From assembly GCA_965153355.1 (NCBI GenBank), contig OZ231126.1, positions 28,210,001 to 28,274,000 on the forward strand: a stretch of DNA of 64,000 nucleotides, given 5' to 3'. Each line of letters begins with the position of its first letter. Within the stretch, counting starts at the first letter, position 1. The translations under genes and the position numbers were made by a program. Source of the stretch: Flaccisagitta enflata (lineage: Eukaryota). Below, piece after piece: positions 3,142 to 45,430 of this stretch. A model generated the notes under the pieces. It searched no databases. It was not told the origin of the DNA and was given only the letters and a program-made list of their open reading frames with translations.

Positions 3142-3203
3142 TACTATTCCGCCTACAGGGAATGTTCGTCGACGAAACAAGGTTGGAGAAAAAGATAAAC
3201 ATT
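3142..3203 (+). repeat. Split direct repeat A1 (left terminus)
   Basis: tactattccgcctacagggaatgttcgtcgacgaaacaaggttggagaaaaagataaacatt, identical to 11521-11582. Confidence 0.95.
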
Positions 3204-3393
3204 CTCCGATGGTGTCCTCGCTTCTCCGACGTGGTCCCTCTCCTGATTCACCAGCAACATTCGACGGAATCAGCTTCAAAAACAATTAAATTTTTTGCAT
3301 TGCCTTCCCCCGCATATTTATTTTTCCTTTCTTTTATTCCCTTTCAGGCTTACTCATAAACAACTTACTAAACATTCATTTAAAGCTAGAGAA

Positions 3394-3822
3394 ATGGCCT
3401 CCACGCTGCCTTTTGTCAAATTGGACCCCAATGCCCATGCTCCAAGGAGAGCTTCTGCTGACGCCGCCGGGCTAGATCTTTTCGCGGTGAACGAAGTCGT
3501 CATTAATCCTGGCAACCGCGAGCGAGTTGAGACCGGCATTCAGGTGGCGATCCCTCGAGGCTACTACGGTAGGATCGCTCCTCGCTCGGGCATGGCTCTG
3601 CGGATGGGCCTCGACGTTGGCGGCGGCGTTATCGACGCCGATTATCGTGGCGGTGTCGCCGTCATTCTTTTCAACCACGGCGCCTCAGAGGTCAAGATTC
3701 TCCCCTCTGATCGCATTGCGCAGCTGATTATCGAGAAGATTGCCTGCCCCGTTCCTGTGGAGGTTGTTTCTCTCGAGGATACCGAACGCGGTTCTGGCGG
3801 TTTCGGCTCCTCTGGCTATTGA
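3394..3822 (+). CDS. dut: Trimeric dUTPase (142 aa) encoded inside the retrotransposon
   Basis: All five dUTPase motifs are present: AGLDL, GRIAPRSG, GVIDADYRG, DRIAQL, RGSGGFGSSG. Intronless; ATG at 3394. Confidence 0.95.
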   Translation: MASTLPFVKLDPNAHAPRRASADAAGLDLFAVNEVVINPGNRERVETGIQVAIPRGYYGRIAPRSGMALRMGLDVGGGVIDADYRGGVAVILFNHGASEVKILPSDRIAQLIIEKIACPVPVEVVSLEDTERGSGGFGSSGY

Positions 3823-3985
3823 GTAATCGATACATCATCAAGATCTAAGCATTCGTATTTCCGTTCCTGTTCGTTATTTTTCTTGCATTTCACGTTTTCT
3901 GTTCTGTTCTGTTACCGTTCTCTTTAGTTATTTCAGATTTACTCAATTAATTTCCTAAGTTTTGACTAGCGTATTTTTCTGCAAA

Positions 3986-5412
3986 ATGGCTGCTACGCCA
4001 AAGCCACCCAAGAGTTATTACGATGCGATGGAGCCTCTGCCGGAAGACTTTCATCCTTACGGTCCCGATTGCGCTCTTCATCGCGAGGTTCAATGCGTCG
4101 CCTTCCATCACGGGTTGTCGCTGGAACACGTTCAGCAGTTAGCCGGCTTTGGCTTCAATTCCGTTACGTCCTTTTCTACGTGCAAGCCCGATGGCACGGA
4201 GAACGAGCAATGTTTGCATCGCCTTGCTTTGGCTCTCTTCAAGTCCGAGCTCATCCGTCATAGGGTGGCCCTAGCGATCGCGCGTTTGAACAGCGGAGAT
4301 CCCTTTGCTCCACTTCCTCCGCCCTTGTTTACGCCTTCAGCATCGCCGTCCGTGTCAAGTGCGGCTTCGTTGCCCCCGGCAAAGAGACAGAAAGTTTCTT
4401 CGAACGAGGCGCAGGCGGCGCCTTCTCCAAACGCATCGCAGTCGACGCTCCCGGCGTCATCTGGAGCGCCGCCTGTAGCAGCGCCGCTTTCTGGCATGGC
4501 CGCGGCCGCGGCTGCTTCCGTTGGGTCTTCTGGCGGCGTCGAGGCCACATCCTCGTCTGGGACGGCGCGAAGAATCGTTACGATGGATGGCGCGAAAGAT
4601 CCCAAGGAGTATTCTGACTCTGATTCTGATTCAAGCTCGGATTCGGATGGTGGCGTCGGTTCTTCCTCGAAGTCCAGCGGAAAGGCGAAGGATGCAAATG
4701 CCATGGTCGAGGGTATCGGCAGTGAGGTGAGAATTCTGATGGTCGGTGATTGGATGATTTCTTTTGAATCTTATTTGATTGACATTGTTTCTGCCATGGA
4801 TATTTTGATATGATGTTTGCCATTTTACAGAGGCTGTCAAAGAGATGGCGCGACTTGCTCGATCACTGCCAGATTCGTATGGAATGTAATTCCGATTCCG
4901 GCGACTACAGCACGATGTTGTACCTGTTCAAGAAAGTCATTCGCTCTGCCAAAGGCTCTCGCGTTGCAGATCCGGTCAAGAACAAGGCTCAGGCGTTGCG
5001 CAGGACTTTGAAGTCCATTTTTCATCTCATCAAGACCCATTGCGTTAATGGAAATTCCGGCGTTGCCACGGTGTTGTACAATGAATTGTCAGGTTTGGCC
5101 GGCTCCTCGACCATCAGACGTGTCAACAAAACGTTACAGCAGACCTTTGGCGCCGCCCGCGGTCGCCTGAGTTCAAACACACGTTCTGACAGCCCGACTG
5201 CCGTTCAGGCTTCTTTCCCAACTAACACCGGACAGACCGCTGGCCGCGGTGGTCGTGGAGCCTTCCAAGGGAATTTTAGGCGTAATTTTCCCAACAATCG
5301 TGGCAACGCCGGCGGCGCCGCTGGGGGCCGTCGCGTTATGCGTTGTTTTATTTGCAATGTCGTTGGCCACGGTTTTCAGCAGTGCCCCCAGCGCCCTGAT
5401 AGTACTTCTTAG
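3986..5412 (+). CDS. Gag-like ORF1 (exons 3986..4726 + 4831..5412, ~440 aa) with C-terminal CCHC zinc knuckle
   Basis: A phase-0 intron (gag|gtgaga at 4727 ... cattttacag| at 4830) joins the two ORFs in frame. An RGG-rich stretch precedes CFICNVVGHGFQQC (CX2CX4HX4C). Confidence 0.8.
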
Positions 5413-6014
5413 TTTCCTTTGATCAATGCCTCAAAGCGTTTTCACCTTCTCGGGAAAGGCAGTAAGACTCTTCTTGGGTCTGTGTAGTAATTTCGTTTAA
5501 AGTCGTAATATGTGATGGTTCCGTCTTGGGATGGCGGCGGCAGCGGTAGCGGAATTTTGCGAGTAATAATGTTTTGATCTGTTATCACCTTTTCTTTACT
5601 ATTTTTGGCGTAGATAATCTTTATTGTTGACACGTTGATTCATCGTTTTGGTTTTTCCTCTTTCAGATAAGCTGATAGCTAGTTTCATTAAAATGGCGTT
5701 TTTTGGTTTCAAAGAAACAAACAGAAATGTTGAATTTAGAGACAGTAACGAGAATGATTGGTTTTATGGAATATGGACTGTGGAAGAGGAAGTGATTTCA
5801 TATATCACATGATATATGTTTGGCGGCATGTTCGTGGTTTGGTTGATGTTCGATCTACCCCCCCCCCCCTCGGCGGTTCATTATGCCGTCGTCGGGCCGT
5901 CGTCGTTGCCACGGATCTGCCTTTGCTCGGCTTTTGCATCTATTTTTGTGCATGCTTTTACATTTATTTTTGTACATGCTAATAATTCATATGATTCTTT
6001 TCATTCTCGGTTGG

Positions 6015-6490
6015 AAATATGTTGTGCCGTGATTTTAGTCACTTGGGTGCCAACATTTGTGAAGCCATTATGGGGCCGTGACTTGGTCACATGAGTGCTC
6101 CTTGGTTTAGCTTCAGTTTTATACCGAGGTTCGATATAATTTTTGACATGTACAATGCAGAGTTTCTCGCGCAAAGGGGAAAAGTGTTTATTTGTGTTTA
6201 AGGCCGTGATTCAGTCACTTGGGTGCCTTCACTTTGGTTTTTTGGGAGATGTTTGCATTTCGTCCGTCTGTCTGCTATGTCTATTTGTCAGTTCGTTTCT
6301 CCCCTGTCAGCATAGTCGTGACAGCAGGCTGTGTCAGCCCTTTTTCCCCGTTATGATTATTTGCACCTCCTTAGACCCTTTGCCGTGATTCGGTCACTTG
6401 AGTGCAAAGCCTTTTCTTTTGTGCCTTGGGCACAGCTTCTTGGTCTTGTTTTTGGCTCGCCGTGATCCTGTCACTTGAGCGCGAGGCCTT
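6015..6490 (+). other. Array of five conserved stem-loop motifs GC-C-GTGAY-(3-4 nt)-GTCAC-WTGRGY-GC, each with a copy-specific closing stem (putative cis-acting RNA element)
   Basis: Cores at 6026-6050, 6075-6098, 6203-6226, 6382-6405 and 6459-6482. The flanks differ between copies but pair in each (atgttg/caacat, aagcca/tggttt, aagg/cctt, ctttgc/gcaaag, ctcgc/gcgag). Confidence 0.75.
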
Positions 6491-6626
6491 TGTGGAGGTG
6501 GTTTGCTCTGCGCGGAATGTACTGTTTCTGGCGTTGCAAGTTAATTGGCTGATGGCACGGGTTTTTTGCCTGAGATGAATTTTCGTCTTATCATATGGTT
6601 TTTTTTTTTCATGGCCTGGTTCTCAT

Positions 6627-6676
<50 letters not shown>

Positions 6677-7573
6677 GCCTTTGCCAAGTACATGAAAATT
6701 CGCGCCACCAGGCCCCCGCTTTCGTCCAGAGATTTTGATCCATTGGCCGCAATGGCCCGTCGCAGTTCGAAGGGCCCTTCATGGGTTGACCTGGAGGGGC
6801 GGCCTGCCTCTCCTCCCGATTTCTCCCGGCTGCCCACGCCAGACGATGTTCTTGCGGGACGAGCAGCCCCCGATTGTGAAGGCTTGAGGCTTCGGTCTCA
6901 ATATACTTTTGTTTGTGGACATTTGCACGATTATGTACCAATTTGGGATTGTTACATGTCCGGTCTGCCGGGCTATGATATTGTGCGCCCATGGCTCAAG
7001 GATGGGGTTCACATCCCTTCCTTTTTTCAACATTTTAAGGGCTCTTTCAATGGGCGTGTTTTCGATTCCTCAACCCCTCCCCCCATGTTTTTTCAGAACG
7101 CTCCAATATGCTGGGAGTACGAGGATTTCATCTCTGATACTGTTTTGAAACGATTGGAGGAGGGTAGCATGCTTTGCCTTGGCCGTGTTGGGGAAACTCC
7201 CCCCCCTTATGTAGTTAATGCTCTCAGCATCGAGCCCATCAAGCCCCGCCTTATATTGTCTATGAGGGCGGTCAATTTGTTTTGTCGCGATACCCCGTTT
7301 TCGCTTGCTCCTTTAACTGATATTGTCAAGGCCATCCCCAATGGCTCTTATTTCTCATCCTATGACGATGTTCAAGGCTACAAGCAATTATCTTTGACAA
7401 AGGAGTCGTACAAATTTTGCGGTTTTGAATGGAACGGTTGGTGGTTTACTGACACAACCCTCCCATTCGGTTGGAAAAACAGTGCTTATGTTTATACAAT
7501 GACGGGTGAGGTTCTTTCTCAATGGCTTCGCTCGAAAGGGGTGCACAATGCCCTCTGGATCGATGACAGATTT
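6677..7573 (+). CDS. pol segment 1: reverse transcriptase (DIRS-order type)
   Basis: KPRLIL, SSYDDVQGYKQL (motif A), TLPFGWKNS (motif B), LWIDD (motif C). Begins after a (CT)n-cag acceptor at 6676; first ATG at 6692. Confidence 0.9.
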
Positions 7574-7673
7574 GTGGGCTTGGCCCCGCCCTTTTGATTT
7601 CATTTTCTACCAGTTTATTTCATTTCCTGCTTGCTTTCTACCATTTTGGTTTTCTTTCATTTCTGTGTCCTAG

Positions 7674-8161
7674 GATTCTCTCGAGCTGCGGGCTAGACGG
7701 GCCTCTTACGTTCTCCTCTACGCGGCAATGGTATTGGGTTATTTCGTTTCTCAACTGAAGAGTACTCTGCTTCCCGTTCAGCGTATGGTCCACCTTGGGC
7801 TGGGAATAGACTCATCATTGATGGCATTTTTTCTGCCGGACAGACTTCGCCAGAAATTTCGTGGTCGAAGGGAAGAACTTTTGTCAACGGGTTTAGCCAC
7901 TGAGAAACAGATGCAGTCATTTATCGGGAAATGTAACCATTTAAAATCTGTTTTCCCCGCTTCATCCCTTTTTACATTCCATTGCCGTCGTTTTGTATCG
8001 CAGCTTGACGAAAATCCTTCCCCCCTACCCCATGAAGTTATGGAGGAAGTCCGTTTTTGGTCCTGTATTGACTCGATGACCGACCCTATTCCTTTTCGTC
8101 GCCATCAGCATTTGCGTCTGAGCCTCTTCACCGACGCGTCTGGGTATGGCTGGGGGGCCTA
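7674..8161 (+). CDS. pol segment 2: RT C-terminal part, connection and start of RNase H
   Basis: LGYFVSQLKSTLLPVQRMVHLGLGIDS and LFTDASGYGWGA. Follows a pyrimidine tract and tag| acceptor at 7673; interrupted by a MITE at 8162. Confidence 0.85.
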
Positions 8162-8495
8162 CCGTATTTTCTCCATTTATCGCCCCCCCTCCAATTAACG
8201 CCCCCCCCTCTTAGAGCTCTCCAGAACAATAATATGAAGGAAGGTGAAATAGCAAATAATCTTTAAAAGTAGAAAGATTTTGCATATTTCAGTGGTTTTT
8301 TTCAAGGATTGAATAAAAAACAAGCAAGATATATCTTATCTTATATATATCTAATATCCTAAGTGGCATTTTTTGTCAATAACGTATAATTAGAGAGTTT
8401 TCACAGATTAAAAGGGGGCGCTAATTGGAGGGTGAAAAGACATTATATTTTTTCAATTTCAAAAGCGCCCGGGGCGCTAATTAGAGAAAATACGG
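8162..8495. mobile_element. 334-bp MITE (Tc1/mariner-pogo type, TA target duplication) inserted in the RNase H domain
   Basis: TIRs ccgtattttctc / gagaaaatacgg flanked by TA at 8160-8161 and 8496-8497. Removing the element plus one TA restores GWGAYVSLPSG in frame. Confidence 0.92.
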
Positions 8496-8497
8496 TA

Positions 8498-9830
8498 TGT
8501 GTCTCTTCCCTCTGGTCCGCTTGTCCTCCGCGACTATTGGCAGTCTGATCTGTTGTCCAATGATATATGCGTCAAAGAGGCTTTGGCTGTTCTGTTTGTC
8601 CTTCAAGCCCTGCCTGAGTCTGTATGGTCACGTCGAGTTGACATTTGTGTTGACAATGAAGGTCTGTCCCTCGCCTGGTCGGGCCTCCGGGCTTCCTCCC
8701 AGGGTTTAGCCGAAGTCTTGAAAGAATTAGCCCTCCTATGTATCGATTTAAATGTTGATTTGCGCCTTCTCTGGGTGCCCACAGATTTCAATATTGCTGA
8801 CGCTCCCTCTCGCGTCTTGTGTCGCAGCGACGCCCGCCTTTCTGACGCTCTCCGTCTTTCCCTTTGGGAGCGTTATGGTCCATTTTCATGGGATTTGATG
8901 GCCCTTCCGTCAAATGCCTTTTCCGTTTATGGGCGTTCTCTGCCTTTCTTCTCTCCTTTTCCCATTGCTGGATGTGCGGGCGTGGATGTTTTTTCTCAGC
9001 GCGCCCCTCGCGGAGTTTCATATGCCTTTCCCCCCTTTGTCATGATCTTGCCCTTGATTGGTTTGTTGGAAGAGTGGGGCGATGTTTGCGCCATTTTGGT
9101 CCTCCCCTTTGACTCCTTTTCTGCACCACCAAGCTGGTTTTCACGACTTTCCCCTTTCATTTTGGAAATCATGCCTTTGGTTTCCAAGACAGACATTGGT
9201 TCTGTCCTTTTTCCTTCATCCGGGGGTTTCGCTCCAAACTGCTATCCCTTAGCCTTTGGCTTGTCTGCTTTCAAATGTTTCTTTCCACCACGGGCCACTC
9301 TCCCTCGGCCCTTTCCTCCTCCTCCTTTCAGGATCCTCATCGGTTCCGACTCAATGTTGCGCCCTTTGGCCGCTTTAAAATGGCCCTCTCCTTTCAATGT
9401 TGAAGTAGTTTGCCTTTCCGGCGCCTCTCTTGCCACTGTCATTTCACAGCTTGTTTTGCGCCTCCCTGCCCAGTTTGATGCCTGCCTCTTTCACGCTGGT
9501 GTCAACGATGTTTCGAGGGGGGGCGATGACTTTCAGGGCTCCTTTCAGTCCTCCTGTTCTTATGCAGCTTCTGTCCTTTCATCGAAATTCCCGGAAGGTG
9601 CGATTTTGTGCTCGTCTGTCTGTCAGACCAAATCCGCGAGCCTTAACGAGCGAGTGCGTGTAGCAAACGAGGCTTTCCGCTCCTTTTCTGCCTCCTATTC
9701 CTGGCGGTATGTTTCTCACGATAATATTCGTTTTGCCGATCTCTCAGACGAGGTCCATTTGAGCGCTTCTGGCGTCGCTAAAATGTATCGCCATTTATGT
9801 TTTGCCTTTCGCTCTCTGCTGAGTAGTTAA
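8498..9830 (+). CDS. pol segment 3: RNase H + DIRS-type N6-adenine methyltransferase-like domain + SGNH/GDSL hydrolase domain
   Basis: RNase H: ICVKEALAV, CVDNE, WVPTDFNIADAPSR. MT-like: WDLMALPSNA...FFSPFP...GVDVFSQ...SYAFPPFVMI...AILVLP. SGNH blocks: IGSDSM, LSGASL, FHAGVND, DEVHLS. Confidence 0.85.
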
Positions 9831-10107
9831 TGATTTTCTAGTTGGCATTATTGCACAATGTTAACAATGTTCCATAATACATCGTGATGCTAACAATGTT
9901 CCACAATGCTTTGCAATGTTCCACAATGTTTCAGTGTATGCGAGTAATTCAGGAGTCGCTTGGCGTTCAATGTGGAAGCTGGGGCAGAGTAAGCGCCATC
10001 TCCGGCGGTCATGGAGTGAAGTTGTTCAGGTAAATTGGTGGTGAATGTGTATGGTGCTTGCTGTTTACGTTCTCTTCTGCCCCCTCTTCCCTTTCCACAT
10101 CCGGCAG

Positions 10108-11328
10108 TTGGATGGTTATTTCACCCGCCGCGACGCGCTGCTCCATCTTGTTAAAGGCTCTAGTTATGAGATTCAAAAATCACGTTTGGCGCAGGATTTG
10201 TGCACCTTCCTCATGGCTCATTCATCGCTGCCCCCTCCGTTGGCGACGGCTGCTTCAATCGATAAGGCAACTCCTGAAGACATTGGGAAATTTCTTTACT
10301 TTCGTGATTCCCGCGGCCGCACACAAATTCATAAATCAAGTTGTCCTTTCATCGGCATGTCGGGCTTAAAGGACTGCGGTTGCCGCGTGGGCCTTGCAGC
10401 TGGAACAATTGACTCCATGATTGGCAAGTTGAGAGCCTATTTCAACAGTCGTGGGCAGACTCAGCCTTATTCTCCCTCGTCTTCTAATTCTAATCCCTGC
10501 GACTCGACGTTTGTCAAGGATTGGCTCAAGGCGGCCTACAAGGAACAGCGGCTTGCCAGAGTCACGCCGCATCAAGCGCCTCCCCTTTTTTCGACGCATT
10601 TACGCCTTCTCGCAGCGGAGATCTCACGCCGCATTGCTTCTCTTCCTTCTTCAGCGCCGCTCTTCCCCGAAAAATTTTGCCTTTTTCGAGATCGCGCTTT
10701 CTTCTTGATTCAATGGTTCAGTGGCGACCGGGCCGGGGATTTGGGACGTGCGGTCGGTCAAGAGGTCTCGCGACCTTCAACGGGTGCCTTAATTCTCAAG
10801 CACACAATTGGAAAAACAATTCGTCAAAGTGGCAGTCAAATTTTAGTGGTGCCTCATATCCCGGAAGATTCGCTTGTTTGCCCTGTCCGCGCTTTCGACG
10901 ATTATGTTGAAGTTTGCAAGTCAGGCGGGATTGATTTGAAGGGAGGTTTTCTTTTTCCTCCCCTCCTGGCCCCTAAGCGGAACAGCGTAAGGAACGCTCC
11001 TTTTAATTCGGCGGCTGCTACAAAGAGAGTGCGTCTCTACATTTCTCCCGATGTGCTTCCTGACGTTTCCGCCCATGGCGCCCGGGCGGGCTGTGCTACA
11101 ACCCTTCTTCTCCTCGGCGCCTCTAAAGATGAGGTCATGGATCATTGTAGGTAGGCTTCAGAGCGCGTTTGCAAGCAGTACCATCAGCTTCAAAAGGTCT
11201 CCAGGATTAAAGGCTCAGCTTTGCGACTTAAAGACGGTCTCCTCGCTTCAGACGAGAAATCAGCAGACAGCGCGGCGGCTTTCTACGAATCCCTGAATAA
11301 TGGGGAACATCAAGCTCCTGCCCTATAA
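10108..11328 (+). pseudogene. Tyrosine recombinase of the retrotransposon, with premature TAG at 11152-11154 (probably from TGG)
   Basis: RDRAFFLIQWFSGDRAGDL (catalytic R), HTIGKT (K), SAHGARAG (HxxR), DHCR*ASERVCKQY (H/W and nucleophile Y). The frame stays open after the stop until TAA at 11326-11328. The 5' start is uncertain; possible upstream exon ~9970-10029. Confidence 0.88.
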
Positions 11329-11455
11329 TCTTTAATCCCCTCTTGCTCTGTAAATAATGATTTGCGTCTGGTTAGTACTGGGTGAGATATGGGTGTTGTG
11401 TGTCCGAGCCTTTTGATTTTCGAGGCCTCTGGGGCCTCGATACTCATGTACTGCA

Positions 11456-11582
11456 GCGCTTTTTGCCCACTCCCTAAACACAGGTTCGTCGACGGGCAGA
11501 AACTGCTTGGCGGAATAGTATACTATTCCGCCTACAGGGAATGTTCGTCGACGAAACAAGGTTGGAGAAAAAGATAAACATT
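11456..11582 (+). repeat. Internal B1-A2 junction of the split direct repeats, with a 24-bp palindrome
   Basis: B1 abuts A2 across ggcggaatagta|tactattccgcc (11509-11532), a perfect palindrome. Confidence 0.93.
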
Positions 11583-11761
11583 TCCGTAGGGGGATAGGCT
11601 GATATAGGCTGGTGAATCAGGTATTGATTATCCTTGTGTGTGTGGTGTTGCTGTATGTGATTGCTTCTCGATCAATATCAATGGAATAATTTTTCATCCC
11701 TTTCCCTCCCTCCCTTCTCTCTTTCACCTGCCTTCTGGCAATCCATACGGCAACACTGCAC

Positions 11762-11830
11762 GCGCTTTTTGCCCACTCCCTAAACACAGGTTCGTCGACG
11801 GGCAGAAACTGCTTGGCGGAATAGTATACT
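11762..11830 (+). repeat. Split direct repeat B2 (right terminus)
   Basis: Identical to 11456-11524. Confidence 0.95.
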
Positions 11831-15027: not shown

Positions 15028-15900
15028 GCCTAACCCCAACACAACCCCTAACCCTAACACAACCCTTAACCCTAAACTCAACATTACCCCTAGCCCTAAA
15101 CCTAACACAACCCTTAACCCTAAACCTAATACAACCCTTAACCCTATACTCAACATTACCCCTAACCCTAAACCCAATACTATCTTTAACCCTAAATTCA
15201 ACATTACCCCTAACCCTAACACAACCCTTAACCCTAAACCTAACACAACCCTTAACCCTAAACCCAACACTACCCCTAACCCTAAACCCAACACTACCTG
15301 TAACCTTAAACTCAACACTACCCCTAACCCAAAACCAAACACAACCCCTAACCCTTAACTTATGTTTAGTCCTTAATGTTAAACCTTATTAAGACTAACT
15401 TAAAACAGACCCTAACCCTTTCCCACGAAGGCACTTCATTTATGCAGGTTATTAATACAGGTTATCTATGCAGGGTTATGATTTCAAATTAAAGGTTAAG
15501 GTTGTGTTTTTTTAGTTAGGGTTAGGACTGGACATAAATGTTAAGGTTAGGGGTAGTGTTGGGTTTAAGGTTAGGGGTTGTATTAGGTTTAGGGTAAGGG
15601 GTTGTGTTAGGTTTAGTGTTTCTTTAATTAGGAATAGCGCTGGATATAAATGTTAAGGTTAAGGTTAGGGACTGTGTTGGGTTTAGGGTTAGGGATTGTG
15701 TTGGGTTTAGGGTTAGGGATTGTGTTGGGTTTAGGGGTTGTGTTGGGTTTAGTGTTTTTTTTAAATAAGAGCTGGATATAAATGTTAAAGTTAAGGTTAG
15801 GGGTTGTGTTGGGTTTAGGGTTAGGGGTTGTATTTGGTTTAGGGCTAAGGGTTGTGTTAGATTTAGGGTTAGGGGTTGTGTTAGGTTTAAGGTTAAGGGC
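15028..15900. repeat. Degenerate telomere-like repeats: (CCCTAA)-type at 15028-15420 and (TTAGGG)-type at 15490-15900
   Basis: aaccctaaccctaa-like units followed by the reverse-complement ttagggttaggg-like units. Confidence 0.8.

Positions 15901-16337: not shown

Positions 16338-45430
<29,093 letters not shown>

Follow-up and report, generated by a model that had tools for sequence, protein, structure and literature searches.

Five copies of a previously undescribed hairpin between gag and pol of an intron-bearing Ngaro-like retrotransposon

The window (the whole 64,000-nucleotide stretch of DNA that was analyzed) carries an Ngaro-like tyrosine-recombinase retrotransposon, whose borders and main features are collected in Table 1. 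The split direct repeats of the element follow the Ngaro layout A1...B1A2B2. Its genes are ordered as dUTPase, gag with a CCHC zinc knuckle, RT/RNase H with a putative SGNH hydrolase, and recombinase. The RVT_1 match was weak (24.2 bits, below the cut-off), and 2309 RT relatives were found. The SGNH-type match (Lipase_GDSL_2), which is positioned before the recombinase, was likewise below its cut-off (18.3 bits, with a cut-off of 32.9). An ALOG domain (E 6e-20) was identified in the recombinase, whose relatives carry PF00589. No match to a methyltransferase domain was found among the 7 ORFs scanned. The element was found to combine RT/RNase H and a tyrosine recombinase without a methyltransferase, which is the combination by which an Ngaro element is recognized.

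Ngaro elements are described, in the available text of two sources, as having split direct repeats in the form A1-[ORFs]-B1A2B2, a gag-like ORF, RT/RNase H, a recombinase, an SGNH-type hydrolase, and overlapping ORFs (PMC9210276, PMC8547959). The element in the window differs from this description in its 1.28-kb gap between gag and pol, in its interrupted coding exons, and in having a dUTPase as its first gene. Furthermore, its putative hydrolase precedes the recombinase, whereas that of the described Ngaros follows it. The dUTPase gene (3391-3822; PF00692 at 2e-37) lies inside the borders of the element and is contiguous with gag in a contig of a second sample. In the available portions of the literature on mobile elements, mention of a dUTPase was found for LTR elements and retroviruses only.

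DNA contigs of two samples join position 3142 directly to 11828, and the depth of this empty site is similar to that of the element. These contigs define the element as 3143-11827, and they show that the insertion is polymorphic or hemizygous. The insertion is also young because its direct repeats are 100% identical. The B1/A2 junction holds a perfect 12+12 palindrome (11509-11532), and GTTCGTCGAC motifs occur in both repeats; the palindrome is a candidate recombination site of a circular intermediate.

This copy of the element is defective because its pol carries a nested repeat and its recombinase has an in-frame stop. The stop lies at 11152-11154, and a 99%-identical metagenome relative reads on for ~58 more residues. 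The nested element in pol (336 bp, 8160-8495) has 27-nt terminal inverted repeats and TA flanks. Its summed contig depth was thousands of times that of its flanks in both organism samples, and a marine metagenome likewise showed a high depth. The copy of the host element in the second sample lacks the nested element. In a poly-A RNA run, of which ~6% of reads were examined, 11 reads fell on the stretch and all of them were on this nested high-copy repeat. A contig of the second sample covering 4499-6593 differs from the window by 35 substitutions and 9 gaps.

The coding sequence of the element is interrupted at 3823-3936, 4742-4830, 7574/7598-7673, and 10030-10107. In-phase GT-AG introns fit the window at 4742-4830 and 10030-10107, and the latter follows a 20-codon first exon that starts from ATG 9970. 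The proposed introns other than that of pol are 78-114 nt long. A signature of splicing is found at the start of the conserved pol exon. Relatives that extend upstream of this point read through residues rich in pyrimidine codons, then a Q, and then the conserved start (A/D/E)F..Y in 20/20 cases (4/4 in one relative set and 16/16 in another). The residues upstream of the conserved start are unrelated, and their counterpart in the window is (CT)23-CAG/GCC at 6676/6677. These pyrimidine-rich residues and the Q that follows them correspond to a 3' splice site read as protein. The Q signature also precedes the recombinase exon in 15/16 closer relatives and in 0/8 distant, uninterrupted ones, and a 3' splice-site signature precedes gag exon 2 in 1/1 relative. 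The conservation of splice signatures before gag exon 2, pol, and recombinase exons suggests that the family propagates with its introns kept.

A splice onto the pol exon is also indicated by the start codon. The ATG of this exon in the window lies at 6692, and the residue at this position in 37 aligned relatives is M in 23, L in 13, and F in 1. Since 14/37 relatives have no Met there, pol needs an upstream exon and hence a splice. The RT frame ends 5-12 codons past WIDDRF in 70/75 relatives that reach WIDDRF (89 were examined), so this interruption is conserved; in the window, the coding sequence resumes in another frame after 76 nt. The tail x-G-x-A-P that follows WIDDRF is conserved (G in 72/75, A in 62/75, and P in 65/75 relatives). 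A simple GT-AG intron at 7574-7673 was considered for this interruption and is doubtful, because the five tail residues are conserved in relatives and because Val is present at the window's GTG, its only GT, in no more than 20/75 relatives.

gag and pol are separate ORFs that lie 1.28 kb apart, and the gap between them is U-rich on the + strand. Translations of 10 ORFs in this spacer had no exact match in the collection searched. The zinc knuckle at the end of gag has three Cys that are invariant in 7/7 aligned gag sequences, and gag stops 8-13 codons past the knuckle both in the window and in 5 of its 6 relatives, namely the more distant ones. In other distant relatives (P0108, P0096), the gag knuckle, pol, and recombinase share a single uninterrupted ORF. 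The first-pass annotation of this DNA had proposed a gag-to-pol splice. The acceptor side of that proposal holds, as 6676/6677 is conserved and an upstream exon is needed. A start in gag is not supported. A Gag-Pol fusion through a splice at the end of gag was rejected, because past the knuckle there is a single GT (5402), whose phase does not match that of 6677, and because a stop ends gag in those same 5 relatives.

Where does the upstream exon of pol come from? Three donor candidates were found that are in phase with 6677. A donor at 5462, which would end a 12-codon mini-exon, would give a 1,215-nt intron. A donor at 6561, used with ATG 6552, would give a 116-nt intron, and a donor at 6598, used with ATG 6595, would give a 79-nt intron whose length is close to that of the other proposed introns. 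Among the donor candidates, only that at 5462 (GTAAGA) was noticed to be of the GTRAG type. The choice of donor matters for the hairpin array described below: the donor at 5462 would make all five hairpins intronic, and a donor at 6561 or 6598, both of which lie downstream of the array, would keep them on the spliced RNA.

Table 1. Positions of the host element, of the parts of gag and pol that adjoin the spacer, and of the five hairpins (positions are those of the window; hairpin scores are from the covariance model)
Feature	Position	Strand	Details
Host element, Ngaro-like tyrosine-recombinase retrotransposon	3143-11827	+	8,685 bp; based on split direct repeats, domains, and empty site
Repeats A1 and A2	3142-3203 and 11521-11582		100% identical
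Repeats B1 and B2	11456-11524 and 11762-11830		100% identical
CCHC zinc knuckle, gag C-terminus	5344-5385	+	RG-rich stretch before the knuckle
Non-coding gap, gag stop to pol exon	5413-6676	+	longest stop-to-stop frame 93 aa
Candidate 12-codon pol mini-exon	5426-5461	+	ATG 14 nt past gag stop; GTAAGA at 5462
Hairpin copy 1	6019-6056	+	core 6026-6050; 44.2 bits; 4-nt loop UUUA; predicted closing helix AUGUUG/CAACAU with a 1-nt bulge
Hairpin copy 2	6062-6108	+	core 6075-6098; 45.5 bits; predicted closing helix in two parts with 2 G-U pairs
Hairpin copy 3	6194-6232	+	core 6203-6226; 51.1 bits; predicted closing helix of AAG/CUU and GUG/CAC, separated by a 3-nt bulge
Hairpin copy 4	6378-6409	+	core 6382-6405; 49.1 bits; predicted closing helix CUUU/AAAG
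Hairpin copy 5	6454-6488	+	core 6459-6482; 49.1 bits; predicted closing helix CUC/GAG plus GG/CC
(CT)23 tract and CAG, 3' splice-site signature	6629-6676	+	directly 5' of the conserved pol exon
First conserved pol exon	6677-7597	+	RT fingers/palm to WIDDRF and a short tail; ORF end 7597

The gap between gag and pol holds five copies of a hairpin. The motif GCCGTGAY-loop-GTCAC-WTGRGY-GC occurs five times on the + strand, and all of its copies in the 64 kb lie at 6026-6482. The pattern CCGTGAYN{2,7}GTCAC matches the window exactly 5 times and always on the + strand (6027, 6076, 6204, 6383, and 6460); 0.05 matches were expected by chance, and 0/100 shuffles gave 5. When a longer motif was searched with up to 2 mismatches, the four copies that have a 3-nt loop were found, compared to 0.03 expected. 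A covariance model made from the five copies was also scanned on both strands of the window with filters off. It returned the five copies only, at 44-51 bits, and the next-best match scored 11 bits. A five-copy stem-loop array between gag and pol had been reported in the first-pass annotation, and both the pattern scan and the covariance-model scan give exactly these five copies. The array lies 606-1078 nt 3' of the gag stop (5410-5412), and its 3' end is 190 nt upstream of the conserved pol acceptor.

Conservation in the array is confined to a 24-25-nt core, GCCGUGAY-loop-GUCAC-WUGRGY-GC, and 17 columns of the five-copy alignment are invariant. The hairpin loops are UUUA, UUG, UCA, UCG, and CCU. 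Identity in the flanks is at a random level, with 0.17-0.40 per 10-nt bin compared to 0.276 expected, which speaks against a recent duplication of a larger segment as the source of the copies. A core conserved inside unalignable flanks is the pattern that would be expected under selection on the core. An extra small hairpin, GUGCC-UUG-GGCAC, is present at 6421-6433 between copies 4 and 5. Its triloop is the same as that of copy 2, and it may be a degenerate partial copy of the array unit.

Each copy is predicted to fold into a 5-bp inner helix (GUGAY/GUCAC) that carries a variable loop of 3-4 nt; below it are an internal loop, which is asymmetric, and a closing helix of variable sequence. The conserved inner helix and the asymmetric internal loop had been proposed earlier, and every copy indeed folds in this way. 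The top pair of the inner helix is U-G in four copies and C-G in copy 2 only. UUGRGY is unpaired in the predicted folds of 5/5 copies and a C is exposed opposite to it; in the ViennaRNA drawing, the internal loop appears as a C-G pair plus a 4-nt bulge and a 1-nt bulge. Within the 601-nt global fold, copies 1-3 persist, and copies 4 and 5 partly pair with one another. A search for long-range pairing found no stretch of at least 10 nt complementary to the core within the element.

It had also been claimed that the closing helices differ in sequence and yet always pair. For the five copies taken as a set, this claim stands. Three pairs of the closing helix show 4 pair types each across the five copies, and the covariation score of the helix is 0.358, compared to 0.137 for shuffles, a value reached by 0/500 shuffles. 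When the core was forced and native flanks were compared with shuffled flanks, the p values were 0.054, 0.045, 0.018, 0.011, and 0.011 (3.7e-5 by Fisher's method). Swapping the 3' flanks among copies gave a mean of -3.7 kcal/mol, compared to -8.8 kcal/mol for the native flanks, and the native arrangement of 5' and 3' flanks is the best among all 120 permutations. For single copies, the claim is weaker (p about 0.01-0.15). Flanks taken from arbitrary places in the same spacer matched the value of a single copy in 2-15% of cases (p about 0.02-0.15), and the unconstrained MFE was not significant compared with shuffled flanks (p 0.19-0.47). The outer stem needs a 1-nt bulge in copy 1 and has an internal loop or bulge in copies 2 and 3. 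Overall, the closing helix is supported by the five copies jointly and by no single copy.

Which strand would carry the fold? The U-G wobble had been taken to favor sense RNA. On the + strand, 6 of the 68 predicted pairs are G-U, and the + strand fold is more stable than the - strand fold in 4/5 copies. On the - strand, these six pairs become A-C mismatches, and mirrored hairpins still form. Four of the six G-U pairs occupy one shared position and may have a single common origin, so the number of independent G-U events is small. Free-energy z-scores of the single hairpins and of the 601-nt region did not clearly separate the strands, and the 601-nt fold had a z-score of -1.41 on the + strand compared to -3.06 on the - strand, which does not favor the + strand. 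Taken together, the strand evidence leans modestly to sense RNA.

A cmscan of 5300-6800 against Rfam 15 (E<=10) gave no match on the hairpins; the sole match, ST7-OT4_2 at 5529-5716, was noise (14.4 bits, with a gathering score of 55). In metagenome contigs, the strict motif was matched 7 times, always singly and at a level like that of chance, and a looser motif had 18 single matches in viral contigs; neither set included a cluster or a match linked to the element. A tblastn search with 7 element proteins against all 25 motif loci found nothing, and one of these loci (L004) reads as a bacterial coding region. With RT, the recombinase, and a 28-sequence recombinase alignment as queries, no relative was found in the viral or genome contigs scanned. 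The relatives sourced from JGI and ENA have a pol identity of 58-77% and lie on contigs of up to 9.5 kb. Either these contigs do not contain the region, or the core is no longer retained at such a distance. The results from the scanned contigs lean slightly against a deep sequence conservation of the core.

The hairpin is previously undescribed, and the array is real, structurally supported, and located in an unusual intron-bearing Ngaro-like element. From its form and position, we infer an RNA function, a likely binder, and a role in packaging or export. A fixed helix with fixed unpaired nucleotides, a free loop, and a free stem, repeated five-fold, looks like the site of an RNA-binding protein. 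The reading we prefer, to which we give a probability of about 35%, is that the five hairpins form a multivalent protein-binding element in sense RNA that acts on unspliced RNA for its packaging or export. The array would be a cis-acting, sense-strand RNA element of the retrotransposon. In each unit, the fixed GUGAY/GUCAC helix would sit on the asymmetric internal loop, which would expose a C and, opposite to it, UUGRGY. The closing stem would hold the unit, its sequence being free as long as pairing is kept. Together, the five units would let a single kind of sequence-specific RNA-binding protein bind multivalently. The likeliest binder would be the Gag of the element itself, acting with its RG-rich/CCHC nucleocapsid tail, and a host export adaptor would be the alternative.

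Why would unspliced RNA need such a platform? Pol can be read only after a splice onto 6677, so the template for reverse transcription must have escaped splicing. If unspliced RNA alone carried a tag, or alone carried it intact, the element could use this tag to export that RNA, package it, or both. A more specific form of this proposal is that the five-fold tag lies in a large gag-pol intron and marks unspliced RNA, that Gag or a recruited adaptor binds it, and that introns are kept over the long term in this way; we regard this form as doubtful. If it were correct, only unspliced RNA would be exported, packaged, and reverse-transcribed, and the element would have a retrovirus-like identity system of independent origin in the DIRS order. 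A tag in one intron would not alone protect the other introns. The 601-nt z-scores, which favor the - strand, count against reading the array as a tag on sense RNA. We know of no cis-acting RNA signal in tyrosine-recombinase retrotransposons. The priming of these elements is described as unknown in the available text of one source (PMC7192593). In the available portions of the literature searched, neither hairpin arrays nor introns were found to be described for Ngaro or DIRS elements.

The retroviral packaging signal psi offers a close comparison for a tag on unspliced RNA. According to the available part of one source, psi is often located within the major intron, and retroviral zinc knuckles bind unpaired G, for example in the internal loop G//AGG of SL1 of HIV-1 and in the UCUG motifs of MLV and FIV (PMC13736810). 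The exposed C-UUG-R-G of the hairpins resembles such G motifs and may be of that kind. Like psi, the array would be a structured sense RNA that has unpaired G loops for a CCHC nucleocapsid and multiple cooperating sites, and its position may likewise be in sequence that is removed from spliced RNAs (PMC13736810, available part). An unpaired G exposed beside helices, as in psi, is present in the predicted folds of 5/5 copies. The location is different, as psi lies in the 5' leader or at the start of gag, whereas the array is internal, between gag and pol. Furthermore, psi consists of distinct stem-loops, whereas the array consists of five near-identical units in a tyrosine-recombinase retrotransposon.

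Export signals of retroviruses provide a second comparison. The constitutive transport element (CTE) and the Rev-response element (RRE) are cis RNA structures that let intron-containing retroviral RNA leave the nucleus, and multivalency matters for their function. The CTE of MPMV is a single long hairpin whose two conserved internal loops bind NXF1. The array is like the CTE and RRE in being a cis RNA structure with repeated internal loops. A CTE of the MPMV type was rejected, as the array consists of five separate hairpins of 32-47 nt and has no sequence or Rfam match to it. Among retrotransposons, Ogre (with a splice between its ORFs), BARE, and copia use splicing to set protein output, and unspliced RNA is the replicated form, as stated in the available text of one source (PMC3735527). 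These are LTR elements with one regulated intron, whereas the element described here is Ngaro-like and has several splice signatures and a hairpin array. No hairpin array was reported for Ogre, BARE, or copia in the portions of the literature searched (PMC3735527).

Other known RNA folds were also compared with the hairpin. The array unit has a geometry similar to that of the iron-responsive element (IRE), as both have a lower stem of variable sequence, a C that is unpaired on the 5' side, and a 5-bp upper helix. An IRE has a six-nt CAGUGN loop, a 5-bp helix, a C bulge, and a free upper-helix sequence. The IRE was rejected, because the array has other loops (listed above) and because its loop is free and its helix sequence is fixed. 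A kink-turn has a 3-nt bulge followed by tandem sheared G-A/A-G pairs. This fold was rejected as well, because the nucleotide opposite is an invariant C and the R position is G in 2/5 copies. A hammerhead-like reading was rejected from the sequence and from Rfam.

Does the array select RNA, or does it control the expression of pol? The latter is possible, though we think it improbable overall, and it can take two forms. In one, the array would be a pre-mRNA splicing regulator that holds back the acceptor at 6676. The negative regulator of splicing of Rous sarcoma virus is a model for such restrained use of an acceptor. In the other, which applies if the donor is downstream of the array, the array would be a 5'-UTR or intercistronic translation element that acts through internal entry, reinitiation, or Gag-bound repression of pol. 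The location of the array fits such control, as its end is separated from the acceptor by 190 nt and from the candidate ATGs (6552 and 6595) by 60-105 nt. Likewise, the short length of the other proposed introns (78-114 nt) favors an intron at 6561/6598-6676, which would leave the array on the mRNA, and the 1.28 kb between the gag and pol ORFs means that a special route to pol is needed. The evidence for RNA structure in the closing helix serves pol control and an unspliced-RNA tag equally. The donor candidates weigh against pol control, since the one GTRAG-type site noticed lies upstream of the array; furthermore, five identical protein-type sites are not, to our knowledge, a known IRES design.

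The core could also be read as DNA, since it is an inverted repeat. A double-stranded DNA site, GTGAY-N3-GTCAC, would be a palindrome with a 3-bp spacer, and its binder would be either a dimeric transcription factor acting at an internal pol promoter or enhancer, or the ALOG domain of the recombinase, for which the copies would serve as accessory 'arm-type' sites. The integrase of phage lambda (Int) has accessory sites of the arm type. The five copies have the same orientation and lie 200-650 bp upstream of the pol exon, where a promoter of its own might be needed for pol given the 1.28-kb gap, and the ALOG domain of the recombinase (E 6e-20) provides a candidate binder. A duplex site does not predict closing stems that differ and yet pair, nor does it predict the G-U bias of the + strand. 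Furthermore, the copies are at least 2.9 kb from the repeat junction where recombination is expected, and no further copy is present in the host DNA of the 64 kb. A DNA site is therefore an unlikely account of the array.

Alternatively, the array may have no function of its own and may have arisen by local amplification of a small fold-back sequence, with copies that are alike through recent duplication or gene conversion. Such an origin would agree with the presence of the array in a single element lineage, with the absence of any match of the exact motif linked to related elements in the scanned metagenome and viral contigs, and with the modest helix statistics of single copies. Recent duplication predicts similar flanks, yet flank identity stays at the random level as far as the edge of the core, and the closing stems are all different yet complementary. 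The variant in the second sample, whose contig covers the whole spacer, has no hairpin indel among the indels listed, which is weak evidence against this explanation as only ~1 would be expected there by chance. An array without a function is accordingly quite improbable.

The weakest explanation, which we consider very unlikely, is that the hairpins act in single-stranded minus-strand cDNA, either in second-strand priming or as folded recombinase sites; it draws on the linear single-stranded cDNA through which DIRS-1 amplifies (its priming being given as unknown in the available text of PMC7192593), on the integron attC sites, which a tyrosine recombinase reads as folded single strands (PMC2727003, available text), and on the mirrored hairpins that fold on the - strand, and it is opposed by the six G-U pairs that become A-C mismatches there with 4/5 copies less stable, by the internal rather than terminal position of the array, and by the lack of a precedent in the literature searched.

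If the family does keep its introns, it faces the same problem as retroviruses, namely the export and selection of unspliced RNA. A compact, five-fold, sequence-defined hairpin would be a directly testable candidate solution for the selection of unspliced RNA, and the hairpin together with its binder could serve as a new orthogonal pair of RNA tag and binding protein. Even if the array is a DNA site or a translation element of pol, it explains the unusual 1.28-kb gap between gag and pol.

Two other repeats were noted as features of the window. The region 15029-15900 consists of inverted blocks of telomere-like 24-nt repeats containing TTAGGG, and the region 35207-37011 is a tandem array of 36 copies of 50 nt with 93% identity.
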